Of a stretch of 64,000 bases of DNA, positions 52,994-55,684 are shown piece by piece. Both the position numbers and the translations under genes were made by a program. This DNA is from Acidobacteriota bacterium (lineage in GTDB: Bacteria > Acidobacteriota > Terriglobia > Terriglobales > Acidobacteriaceae): contig JAJXWS010000001.1 of NCBI GenBank assembly GCA_021781495.1, positions 73,551-137,550 on the forward strand, read 5' to 3'. The notes below the pieces were generated by a model. It made no database searches and was not told where the DNA came from. It worked only from the letters and a program-made list of their open reading frames with translations. The number at the start of each line of letters is the position of its first letter. The first letter of the stretch is position 1.

Positions 52994-53095
52994 CGATCAA
53001 TACCTCAATCCTGGGTTGCTGAAATCCATTATAAAAAGGCCGCCGCGCACTCTGCCGGCGGGTTTGCGCCACCGGCAGGGTCCGCTGTCAGGCCA

Positions 53096-53485
53096 TTACT
53101 TCTGTGCTGCGCTCTTCGCCATCTCCTGGTGAAGTGCCGCCAGTTCCTGCATCTTTGTCGCCGAGTCCTTCAGCGACTGCGCAATATATTCGCAGTGGTT
53201 CACCGTCCCCGTTGCCCACTTCGACGAGCTGATCAACGGATTCTTCCTGTACTGCTCCGCCATCTGCGCATGTTCCTGCGACTCGGCAAGATACTTCCTT
53301 GCCTGCGCGTCATAGTACTGCGCAATGCGCTCATGTTCCGCTGGGGTCTTGGCCGTGGCAATCAGCGCCATCAGCTGCTGCCTGCTCAGTTTCTCCGCGG
53401 GGTGCTGGTGCTGCATGGTCGCCTGGCCATAGGCGGAGAAGGCCAGCGCAAACGTCAGTGCGATTACGGCAAATGTGTGTTTCAT
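53096..53485 (-). CDS. Secreted helical His/Met-rich protein, putative metal-binding
   Basis: AGGAG RBS; signal peptide; MQHQH, AKTPAEHERIAQYY, EHAQMAEQY, NHCEYIA, LHQEMA. Confidence 0.8.
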   Translation of the reverse strand: MKHTFAVIALTFALAFSAYGQATMQHQHPAEKLSRQQLMALIATAKTPAEHERIAQYYDAQARKYLAESQEHAQMAEQYRKNPLISSSKWATGTVNHCEYIAQSLKDSATKMQELAALHQEMAKSAAQK

Positions 53486-53582
53486 CGGAATCTCCTATGC
53501 GAGTTGCATTCGATCGACTATCGGCTCTCAGTAGCCTCAACGGCCCTGAAGAAGGAATCGTTGCGGTGTCGCGTAGGAAGGT

Positions 53583-53999
53583 CTAGATCCGGAAGACTCG
53601 CAGGCAAAGATAGCGTTCATTCTTCGGCGTGCGCACATCTCTTCGCGCCGGGCGGCCGCTCATGCCCACGCGCTGCGCACGCACGGCAACTGTATCCGTT
53701 GCCTGCGCCGCCAATGCATTCTGCCCCAGTGTCGGTTCCATGCGCAGAATCGCTCGCCGCGCTACGGAAACCCGGCACCCCTGCTCGCCGCACGCCGCCT
53801 CAAACAGCGCTCGCGGATTCGCAACTCTGTGGCTCGCCACGCCGGCGGCCATGTTCATGCCGCTCATCTGCATACAGCAGCCTGCGCCGCAGTGGCTCTG
53901 CGCGCACGCAGCCGGAATGCACTCCTGCTCTCCCATCGCCTGTTGCAGCGTAAGCAGCGACGCAAGTACAAGCACCACGAGTTGGACGGCTCGCTTCAT
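53583..53999 (-). CDS. Cys/Met-rich signal-peptide ORF ending YLCLRVFRI, candidate regulatory upstream ORF
   Basis: Start moved to ATG 53999; MKRAVQLVVLVLASLLTLQQAMG, then ECIPAACAQSHCGAGCCMQMSGMNM...CGEQGC; co-oriented 97 nt upstream of 53096..53485. Confidence 0.65.
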   Translation of the reverse strand: MKRAVQLVVLVLASLLTLQQAMGEQECIPAACAQSHCGAGCCMQMSGMNMAAGVASHRVANPRALFEAACGEQGCRVSVARRAILRMEPTLGQNALAAQATDTVAVRAQRVGMSGRPARRDVRTPKNERYLCLRVFRI

Positions 54000-54041
54000 C
54001 CTCAGAGCAATCCAAGTATCCCGCGCTGCAGGAATCCCTGA

Positions 54042-54057
54042 TGTGACTCGCGTCACC
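54042..54057. promoter_or_regulatory. CRP/FNR-family-like box (class II position for the Cys-rich ORF)
   Basis: TGTGA-CTCGCG-TCACC; centred 41.5 bp from a +1 predicted from GATACT (54020-54015, minus strand). Confidence 0.55.
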
Positions 54058-54074
54058 CCCTGCTTGCGGCACTG

Positions 54075-54090
54075 AGTGACTTCCATCACA
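54075..54090. promoter_or_regulatory. Second CRP/FNR-family-like box in the divergent intergenic region
   Basis: AGTGA-CTTCCA-TCACA, 33 bp from the first box. Confidence 0.55.
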
Positions 54091-54232
54091 GACGCGCTTC
54101 TTCCGCCGCATTCCAATAAAGACAAATTGTGAGCAGGCACGCATGGCAGCTCCTGCACGTCGCTTCGGATCGGCTGCACGACCCTCTGCCATCCAGTCCA
54201 TGCATCCCTTGCTTCCCTTGGAGGAAATCAGG

Positions 54233-55684
54233 ATGAACTCCCTCAGGACCTGTCTGCGCTCCGGCGCGTTTTATGCCGCAATCCTTTCGCTATCCATACT
54301 GCTCACCTTCTCGCTCAGCGCCTGCTCAGGCGGCAGTTCCGCCTCCACCGGCACCACTCCGCCGCCTGCCGCCAAGACCATGGTCCAGGTCAACGTAGGA
54401 GACTCGCCCGCGGACTGGATGCTGGCCTTCTCCATGAACATCAGCTCCATGTCCCTCACCGGCAGCAACGGCTCCGCAGCCGTCGTCTCCACCGCCACGC
54501 CCATGGAGATGATGCACCTGATGGGCACCATGCAGCCGCTCGCCATGGTCAACCTGCCGCAGGGCACCTACACCGGCGCCACCGTCACCATCGCCTCCGC
54601 CACCGTGGTCTACATGGATCCCACCACCAAGACCGCCGTACAAAAAACCATCAACGGCCCCATCACAGGCAATGTCACCTTCGCCTCGCCCGTCACCGTC
54701 GGCTCCACGGCCATGGCCATGGGCTTTGATCTCAATCTCGCCAAATCCATCACCACAGACTCCAGCGGCAACCTCGCCATGTCCCCCGTCTTCAACACCA
54801 CCACGGGCATGCAGGGCTCCGGCAATCCTCTCGACTTCACCGACGGCGGCATCGAAGAGTTGATGGGCACCGTCTCCGGCGTCTCCGGCAGCAGCTTCAC
54901 CATGACGTCCATGCAGGCCGCGCAAAGCTTCACCTTCGCCACCAACGGCTCCACCGTCTTCAGCAACATGACCATGAGCAGCATGGCCAGCGGCATGATC
55001 GTCCTCGTCGACGCCACCCTCCAGTCCGACGGCTCGCTCATGGCCACCAGGGTCCAGTCCATGTCCGGCGCGGGCGGCATGATGGGCGGCGGCATCGTCA
55101 CCACGGTCACCGGCCAGCCCGTCACCTCGCTCACCATGATCATGCAGAACGGCGCTGGCACCGGCATGATGTCCTCCTACTTCGCCTCCGGTGTCACCGT
55201 CAACATGAGCGGAAGCACCTCCTACGAGATCAACGAAGACAACGTCGATATGTCCAACCTGCCCTTCACGCCTCGCTTTGACGCCAGCAACATCTACCCC
55301 GGCCAGGCCGTCATGCCCATCAGCACCACCGGCATGATGAGCGGCAGCGGCGGCATGATGGGTGGCGGAGGCATGATGGGCGGCACCACCATGTCCGGCA
55401 CCATCAGCGCCACGGAGCTGGCCCTCATGCCCCAGGGACTCAGCGGCGCCCTCGGCGCGGCGGTCTCCAGCGGCACGTCCTCCACCTTCACCCTCACCCT
55501 GCCGTCGGACTGCGCCTTCACCACCCTCACCGGCGCCACCAGCGTCACCGTCTATCAGCAGACAGACACCATCCTCGCCGGCACCTCGCCCCTTGCCAGC
55601 GGAGCCTCCGCCCACGTCTTTGGCCTGCTCTTCAACGACGGCGGCCAGTGGAAGATGGTCGCCGCCCGCATCGGCGCCAACTAA
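54233..55684 (+). CDS. Met-rich lipoprotein with DUF4382-like and DUF5666-like beta domains
   Basis: Start moved to ATG 54233 (GAGGAA RBS); lipobox FSLSAC; VQVNVGDSP...LP.GTYTGATVTI...GFDLNL (DUF4382-like); GTVSGVSGSSFT...TNGSTVF...VLVDATLQSDGSLMATRV (DUF5666-like); Met/Gly tracts. Confidence 0.72.
   Translation: MNSLRTCLRSGAFYAAILSLSILLTFSLSACSGGSSASTGTTPPPAAKTMVQVNVGDSPADWMLAFSMNISSMSLTGSNGSAAVVSTATPMEMMHLMGTMQPLAMVNLPQGTYTGATVTIASATVVYMDPTTKTAVQKTINGPITGNVTFASPVTVGSTAMAMGFDLNLAKSITTDSSGNLAMSPVFNTTTGMQGSGNPLDFTDGGIEELMGTVSGVSGSSFTMTSMQAAQSFTFATNGSTVFSNMTMSSMASGMIVLVDATLQSDGSLMATRVQSMSGAGGMMGGGIVTTVTGQPVTSLTMIMQNGAGTGMMSSYFASGVTVNMSGSTSYEINEDNVDMSNLPFTPRFDASNIYPGQAVMPISTTGMMSGSGGMMGGGGMMGGTTMSGTISATELALMPQGLSGALGAAVSSGTSSTFTLTLPSDCAFTTLTGATSVTVYQQTDTILAGTSPLASGASAHVFGLLFNDGGQWKMVAARIGAN

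Follow-up and report, generated by a model that had tools for sequence, protein, structure and literature searches.

The two-gene locus

The window analysed here is a 64,000-nucleotide (nt) stretch of contig JAJXWS010000001.1 (positions 73,551 to 137,550) from the genome of an Acidobacteriota bacterium of the family Acidobacteriaceae (assembly GCA_021781495.1). The element in question is a pair of genes on its minus strand. The upstream gene encodes a 138-amino-acid (aa) protein with a predicted signal peptide, a cluster of cysteines and methionines and a C-terminal Phe-Arg-Ile (FRI), and the downstream gene encodes a small secreted protein. An earlier note on this DNA had proposed that a ribosome pausing at the end of the upstream gene frees the Shine-Dalgarno (SD) sequence of the downstream gene, which is otherwise hidden by a complementary anti-SD segment, and that metal binding or export of the nascent chain sets the pause. 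All the sequence statements of that note were reproduced on the minus strand, where the open reading frame (ORF), the two arms, their pairing at 10 of 11 positions, the 66-nt loop and the ATG at 53485 are exact. The features of the locus are listed below in the direction of transcription.

53583..53999, minus strand: upstream gene, 138 aa, MKRAVQ…CIPAACAQSHCGAGCCMQMSGMNM…CGEQGC…ERYLCLRVFRI, then TAG
53931..53999, minus strand: start codon and predicted Sec-type signal peptide, residues 1–23, MKRAVQLVVLVLASLLTLQQAMG
53775..53921, minus strand: exported Cys/Met cluster, presumed ligand-sensing part, residues 27–75
53628..53774, minus strand: peptide spacer, conserved in length and not in sequence, residues 76–124
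53586..53627, minus strand: C-terminal 14 residues PKNERYLCLRVFRI, diverging from the family motif; candidate peptide for an arrest or pause
53583..53585, minus strand: TAG stop codon of the upstream gene, read directly from the sequence
53569..53579, minus strand: anti-SD arm UUCCUACGCGA, 5′ arm of helix P1, beginning 4 nt past the stop
53518..53554, minus strand: inner stem-loop(s) of the spacer RNA in the minimum-energy fold, counterpart of the family hairpin P3
53492..53502, minus strand: SD arm UCGCAUAGGAG, 3′ arm of P1, with AGGAG at 53496-53492, 6 nt before the ATG
53096..53485, minus strand: downstream gene, ATG at 53485, for a secreted and probably helical product of 129 aa that contains an HCEY motif

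The upstream protein has cysteines at positions 27, 32, 37, 41, 42, 70 and 75, with several methionines among them. The distance from C75 to the last residue, I138, which takes in the peptide spacer and the tail together, is 63 residues. The GC-content at third codon positions is 0.73 in this ORF, lower than in the neighbouring genes (0.84–0.89). The arms UUCCUACGCGA and UCGCAUAGGAG contain one G-U pair and one C-A mismatch. The downstream protein has 223 homologues in Acidobacteriaceae and matched no Pfam or NCBIfam family. It had been described as a His/Met-rich secreted protein; the enrichment is only mild (a count by eye gave 7 His and 6 Met among the 129 residues), and the corresponding products elsewhere in the family are mostly Cys-rich secreted peptides. 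The label “uORF”, given to the upstream gene, understates a gene for a 138-aa secreted protein.

An unannotated family of exported proteins

A word-based search of 5.8 billion proteins with the 138-aa query returned nothing beyond the query itself. A six-frame search of 60 relatives gave weak yet full-length, stop-free matches equal in size to the 138-aa ORF. All of them ended in …FRI-stop or …IRI-stop, and several were located directly 5′ of a homologue of the window’s 129-aa gene. A family profile built from eight members retrieved 315 clusters at 50% identity from a library of 1.84 billion proteins, 189 of them with E ≤ 1e-10. The profile matched 129 of 401 genomes of Terracidiphilus, the genus of the window, and in a separate class-wide sample of 401 genomes this was the sole genus matched out of 146. 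An exact-pattern scan of 185,579 species genomes yielded 39 records, which belong to Terracidiphilus or to metagenome-assembled genomes of Acidobacteriaceae or Acidobacteriota, with one exception labelled Bryobacteraceae. The members are approximately 17–29% identical to the window copy (about 25% shared identity) and match no Pfam or NCBIfam model (eight members were compared with Pfam, with E up to 10). With homologues of full length and free of stops in 129 of the 401 genomes of the genus, and with 315 clusters in the library, the upstream ORF is, judging from sequence conservation, a real gene of an unannotated family. For counts concerning the spacers, the RNA and the downstream genes, 96 distinct genomic loci were collected.

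The N-terminus follows the consensus MKRxxQxVAxxVxxLLAxQPALA in an alignment of 87 sequences, i.e., MKR, a hydrophobic core and ALA. It thus has the appearance of the Sec signal peptide carried by CutF-like proteins of the DUF2946 family. In the AlphaFold2 prediction made with these 87 sequences, a helix at residues 2–22 (predicted local distance difference test, pLDDT, 86–92) is the only confident element and corresponds to the signal peptide. The remainder of the protein has a pLDDT of 41–63 and no secondary structure, and the peptide spacer falls below 50. The Cys/Met cluster has the consensus C-x7-9-C-x3-C-P-M-x-M-x2-M-G-x-D-C-P-M … C-x-Q-x-C-C, in which C27, C41, C70 and C75 are invariant or nearly so across the family. 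A Cys motif is also characteristic of CutF-like proteins, and the window copy carries one in the form C37-x3-C41-C42 and C70-x4-C75; metal binding itself is presumed.

The peptide spacer combines a variable sequence with a nearly constant length. No position reaches 50% consensus in the 87-sequence alignment. The distance from the last motif Cys to the C-terminal residue is 63 residues in 72 of the 96 loci (standard deviation 2.1) and 61–64 residues in 133 of 140 library representatives. The length of the Cys-cluster segment varies more, with a standard deviation of 6.1. As AlphaFold2 predicts no confident structure beyond the signal peptide, the constant length is not accounted for by a folded domain. 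The spacer acts like a length ruler of fixed length and free sequence.

The terminal motif S-S-P-P-R-Y-(I/L)-L-x-(Q/R)-V-F-R-I directly abuts the stop codon, and the pattern was found in all 96 loci. Among 150 representatives, the last residue is Ile in 142, and the preceding positions are Arg in 145 (−2), Phe in 138 (−3) and Val in 124 (−4), so the conservation of FRI-stop anticipated in the earlier note is borne out. The synonymous codons vary freely; Arg at −2 is encoded by each of its six codons and Val at −4 by each of its four, and Phe at −3 and Ile at −1 both alternate between their two codons. Because of this freedom, the tail is, on the evidence of codon usage, selected as a peptide and not as RNA. 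Conserved residues immediately before the stop are the mark of termination-arrest peptides, and the family possesses them. Prolines occur in the tail only at −12 and −11 and are absent from the window copy. As had been remarked for the window copy, there is no RAPP motif; the tail sequences of the family contain no RAGP/RAPP-like or other known arrest motif. The stop codons of the 96 loci are TAA (47), TAG (46) and TGA (3), and TGA accounts for 47% of long-ORF stops genome-wide. The avoidance of TGA was considered as a sign of dependence on RF1 and dropped, as the downstream genes are also TAA-rich and a sister subfamily mostly uses TGA.

This sister subfamily was traced from partial profile matches lacking the FRI tail. 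Its members have the same signal peptide and a CPMM-type Cys/Met cluster, and hhalign aligned the two groups with a probability of 97.9% and E of 6e-13 over the N-terminal 68 columns only. The tail is …LC(T/I)F(L/Q/R)I-stop (e.g., …LCTFLI-stop), and the distance from the Cys to the end is 64 residues in 18 of 25 members and 63–67 in all. The anti-SD is located directly after the stop. The SD is often GAGGGA, with the anti-SD changed along to UCCCUC, and the duplexes reach −21 kcal/mol. The downstream genes form a cusCBA-type set. They encode an outer-membrane efflux protein (OEP), an adaptor of the CusB type that carries a heavy-metal-binding domain (HMBD), a NosL/TRASH-like protein and a resistance-nodulation-division (RND) pump. 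An OEP homologue is found downstream in 19 of 21 sister loci. The same arrangement of leader and operon is known for CzcI-czcCBA and related CutF-like leaders (PMC9973294). On this evidence, metal efflux operons would be under CutF-like control outside DUF2946 as well. The window’s own genome contains no sister-subfamily copy. Sister loci were recorded at L116 (215-4997, plus strand), L117, L118 and L119 and at L121-L140.

Downstream of the FRI family, a small gene with a Sec signal begins 75–115 nt past the stop in 96 of 96 loci, mostly at 90–99 nt. In 67 loci its product is a secreted peptide of about 55 aa with 8–12 Cys (e.g., …CSDCCHQKCDGKTCCKGSCNESCCQSK), and in 11 it is a protein of about 100 aa rich in Cys and Lys; 16 loci have a 129-aa helical HCEY protein, as in the window, and 2 have a CPxDHCPFCP peptide. 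None of these gene types matched a Pfam or NCBIfam family. The secreted Cys-rich proteins may be periplasmic metal sponges. The identification of one Cys-rich peptide as HvfA, a ribosomally synthesised and post-translationally modified peptide (RiPP) metallophore, was rejected, with 17 bits against a cut-off of 95. The Cys-rich proteins constitute two unannotated families, found at L002, L007, L019, L020, L031 and about 75 other loci. Sensor-plus-peptide modules can also stand in tandem, with three at L088 (G714:C1:128728-132814) and two at L107 (G023:C27); one pair type ends in the CPxDHCPFCP peptide.

The intergenic helix and the control of transcription

In the window alone, the anti-SD/SD helix is indistinguishable from chance. 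The fold of 53480-53620 (141 nt), which the earlier note had put forward as a check, gave z = −0.21, and its minimum-energy structure pairs the SD with a coding segment instead, so that by itself this check lent the helix no support. The fold of the stop-to-ATG spacer only does form the proposed helix, with −28.3 kcal/mol for the whole and −15.5 kcal/mol for the arm duplex.

Comparative analysis indicates that the helix is conserved far beyond chance across the relatives. When the stop-to-ATG spacers are folded to minimum energy, three or four of the GGAG bases pair with the first 30 nt past the stop in 92 of the 96 loci. The anti-SD arm begins 2–6 nt past the stop, most commonly 5. The stem closes a loop of 60–90 nt that holds an inner hairpin, P3, and the loop sequence is poorly conserved outside the stem of this hairpin. 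The cognate arm duplexes have a mean energy of −15.95 kcal/mol versus −8.2 for shuffled 5′ arms and −9.4 for windows within the loop. The gap between cognate and non-cognate arms (−14.2 kcal/mol) is modest, because most loci share the flank GACGU/ACGUC.

Run on 316 kb of sequence, a covariance model comprising the helix and the inner hairpin found the 96 spacers and nothing else; the window match is at 53480-53594 with 45.5 bits. In the alignment to this model, 87% of the cells are standard pairs versus 32–50% when the partners are slid by 1–3 columns, and the covariation score is 0.223 compared to 0.144 ± 0.006 for shuffled alignments, none of which scored as high in 500 trials. Changes on both sides are seen in all five pairs next to the SD:anti-SD core, e.g., GC to UA nine times; the core pairs cannot covary within the FRI subfamily, because the SD is fixed. 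Hairpin P3 covaries as well, its closing pair being GC in 32, AU in 29 and UA in 6 cases. The predicted covariation of the helix was thus found in the form of compensatory flank changes. An intergenic stem hiding the SD of the next gene, as in CutF-like systems, is accordingly a feature of the family.

RNAalifold applied to a MAFFT alignment recovered only the inner hairpin, since the P1 arms are thrown out of register by bulges. The pair counts gave no support to a third helix, P2 (GCAAA/UUUGU). The inner hairpin was also considered as an intrinsic terminator and rejected, as most loci lack a U-tract and the terminator scan was empty in the window gap. The spacers had no match in Rfam. An independent promoter in the gap had been named in the earlier note as a finding that would speak against the switch; sigma-70-like sites were found in 3 of 96 spacers versus 3.2 in shuffles, and none in the window gap.

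Upstream of the gene pair, two further features were found in the window.

54075..54090, minus strand: distal CRP/FNR-type box TGTGATGGAAGTCACT, one mismatch to the consensus, in the divergent region shared with a DUF5666 lipoprotein gene
54042..54057, minus strand: proximal CRP/FNR-type box GGTGA-N6-TCACA, with its centre about 50 nt ahead of the start codon

The pattern TGTGA-N6-TCACA, with up to 2 mismatches, is present in 83 of 91 family loci versus 1 of 91 shuffled ones, with the centre 45–50 nt before the start codon. A box at the distance of the distal one is not conserved in other loci. The proximal box is likely to be a class II promoter element of the two-gene unit, in which case the leader would amount to just a few nucleotides. 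Should it be a class II CRP/FNR site, to which its consensus points, a trans-acting regulator would add to the translational switch.

At the other end of the unit, a hairpin CUGCCGG…CCGGCAG with a U5 run further on follows the 129-aa gene (53033-53078, minus strand). It was noticed by eye and not flagged by the terminator scan, and could end the two-gene transcript. The gene divergent from the module encodes a Met-rich DUF5666 lipoprotein (54143-55684, plus strand). A homologue is located near a sister-subfamily gene in genome G724 (L120, 2614-4068, plus strand), and this recurrence hints at a recurring metal island.

Proposed mechanism, alternatives and known systems

Taken together, these features are best read as a translational switch of the SecM/MifM/CutF type belonging to an undescribed family, in which the exported Cys/Met cluster would govern how long a ribosome dwells on the stop codon, and this dwell would expose the downstream ribosome-binding site. 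We hold this reading with moderate confidence; ribosome pausing and metal dependence are its inferred parts, drawn by analogy. As long as the end of the upstream gene is free of ribosomes, the stem would hide the downstream SD. A ribosome with a stop codon in the A site covers about 9–12 nt beyond it. At this stop it would therefore cover the anti-SD and keep it single-stranded, and the SD would be free only while the ribosome remains there, because its footprint covers the anti-SD. The 14-residue tail, lying in the upper exit tunnel, would slow the release of the peptide, so that the open time would equal the dwell on the stop. The last Cys of the cluster would then be 63 residues from the P site, about enough to reach through the exit tunnel and the SecYEG channel together. 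If the emerging cluster bound a soft metal, or became oxidised, the pull on the nascent chain and thus the dwell time would change. Most likely, metal would prolong the pause and turn the downstream gene on, this direction being a guess from the outputs and from the analogy with CutF. The unit would probably be transcribed from a class II promoter of the CRP/FNR type, and its leader would be very short.

A more far-reaching version is offered tentatively. According to it, VFRI-stop and LCTFLI-stop would be new proline-independent peptides that block or slow release. They would act within a transmembrane sensor, whose ruler of 63–65 residues would set the cluster at the periplasmic mouth of SecYEG just as the ribosome arrives at the stop. 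The family as a whole would be a lineage-specific analogue of DUF2946 in Terracidiphilus, switching on cusCBA-type pumps and secreted metallothionein-like Cys-rich peptides upon the appearance of soft metals in the periplasm. To our knowledge, few nascent-chain sensors of extracytoplasmic conditions have been described, namely SecM, MifM, VemP and CutF. If true, the present case would add an independent sensor family with a different arrest chemistry, that of a hydrophobic Phe-Arg-Ile-stop tail without prolines. The clean ruler makes the geometry of tunnel plus translocon directly testable. Three unannotated protein families of a dominant soil and peat genus come to light in the process: the sensor, the Cys-rich peptides (~55 and ~100 aa) and the 129-aa helical protein.

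Several observations weigh against a metal-controlled pause. Proline is absent from the part of the tail close to the peptidyl-transferase centre, and in the literature searched no known arrest peptide resembles it, nor is QVFRI reported in such a sense. The terminal Phe-x-Ile-COOH could instead be a recognition signal for a PDZ domain or a tail-specific protease. The window copy is divergent; it lacks the Pro-Pro, scores only 45.5 bits with the covariance model and folds, as a single sequence, no better than shuffles. The metatranscriptomes of the window’s metagenome study contained nothing at the locus. The genes around the FRI modules are housekeeping ones (nuoI, metH, udk), with no conserved metal context. 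The pair therefore represents a self-contained module, and with such neighbours the link to metals rests on the sister subfamily, on the Cys/Met chemistry and on the habitat. Regarding the latter, four DNA runs of one study, labelled mine drainage or mine tailings metagenome, contain 53000-54200 at 99–100% of the sampled words, and a role in metal response fits this occurrence.

The most serious alternative, which we nevertheless regard as unlikely, is plain translational coupling without a programmed pause, the tail and the spacer serving the mature periplasmic protein as a PDZ or tail-specific-protease ligand of the Phe-x-Ile-COOH type, a degron or a docking strand. It draws strength from the geometry of the helix, which suffices by itself, since any ribosome reaching the stop opens it; this too counts against the need for a pause. 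The last and third-last residues are hydrophobic in both subfamilies and the penultimate one varies (R, L, Q), as a C-terminal binding motif would have it, and SecM and CutF are rapidly degraded in the periplasm (PMC9973294), which agrees with a degron. However, the tail is conserved over 14 residues, with Pro-Pro-Arg-Tyr at 9–12 from the end, and is longer than a C-terminal recognition tag. A sequence-free spacer of fixed length, predicted to be unstructured, is likewise left unexplained by a folded domain or a degron. Plain coupling and a programmed pause are not mutually exclusive.

Two other explanations are less likely, because the SD itself is paired and the anti-SD arm is locked to the stop codon. 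Transcriptional control in the style of TnaC or CruR, with the ribosome at the stop blocking the loading of Rho or altering the inner hairpin and so allowing read-through, appears very improbable. Rho-dependent termination is reported for CruR, a DUF2946 leader, in the discussion of PMC9426467 given in PMC9973294, and provides a precedent; in addition, the GC-rich P3 is conserved and is followed by a U-rich stretch in about one third of the loci (GAUUUGUGA). On the other hand, P3 mostly lacks a U-tract, the terminator scan of the window gap was empty, and the strongest conserved feature is the pairing of the SD (92 of 96 loci), pointing to initiation. It is hardly credible that the spacer RNA senses a signal by itself, as a riboswitch, a thermometer or the target of a small RNA, with the tail of the ORF irrelevant: the conserved multi-helix structure with covariation would suit it, but there is no Rfam match, the 5′ arm always lies 2–6 nt past the stop of one protein family, and the loop sequence is poorly conserved except for the hairpin stem.

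The switch proposed here can be compared with three groups of known systems. In SecM, MifM and VemP, the stalled ribosome opens the stem, and the arrest is relieved by the pulling force of translocation. The present pair resembles SecM-secA, MifM-yidC2 and VemP-secDF2 in having an exported nascent chain, a C-terminal arrest sequence (here a candidate one) and a stem sequestering the SD. It differs from SecM, MifM, VemP, ApdA and ApdP in its downstream genes, which are not Sec/YidC components (secA, secDF, yidC). SecM, MifM and VemP, moreover, arrest in elongation and not at a stop codon, and the family has no RAGP/RAPP-like motif.

Conserved C-terminal motifs that arrest the ribosome at a stop codon have been described in NSP-stop, NAP-stop and DGMK-stop (PMC10987492) and in PepNL, TnaC and SpeFL (PMC11890864). 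As in all of these, where the stop is needed for arrest, the conserved residues of the family stand right before the stop (PMC11890864, PMC10987492). Unlike the family, TnaC, SpeFL, PepNL, NSP-stop, NAP-stop and DGMK-stop are short cytoplasmic or Sec-associated leaders whose motifs are different ones, and none of them ends in FRI or FLI; the tail described here is a candidate for this class.

The closest counterpart is CutF, in which copper-induced stalling melts a stem that hides the SD of cutO (PMC9973294; bioRxiv 10.1101/2025.02.05.636593). Like CutF-cutO of Rhodobacter capsulatus, CruR of Bordetella pertussis and CzcI of Cupriavidus, the family consists of secreted proteins of ~100–140 aa with a Sec signal, a Cys motif, a conserved C-terminal motif and a stem hiding the SD. 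The targets of CutF-like proteins are metal-detoxification genes (PMC9973294; bioRxiv 10.1101/2025.02.05.636593), and the sister subfamily heads cusCBA-type operons as CzcI heads czcCBA. Membership in DUF2946 (PF11162) itself was considered and rejected, as no Pfam hit was obtained for eight members (E up to 10) or three sister members (E up to 0.1). A six-frame search for PF11162 in eight genomes gave nothing above the cut-off and no sub-threshold match at the loci. The proline-rich C-terminal stalling motif of CutF-like proteins is likewise missing; unlike that of CutF, the tail is hydrophobic and free of proline over its last 10 residues, and its stall would therefore not be an EF-P-related polyproline one. 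Further differences from CutF are that the pause would take place at termination, that the spacer has 63–65 residues versus 45 and that the main targets are small secreted Cys-rich peptides and a 129-aa helical protein. Surveys built on the DUF2946 Pfam family would thus undercount the CutF-like mechanism. By analogy, the module looks like one that works in the manner of CutF, outside DUF2946 and without a proline motif.

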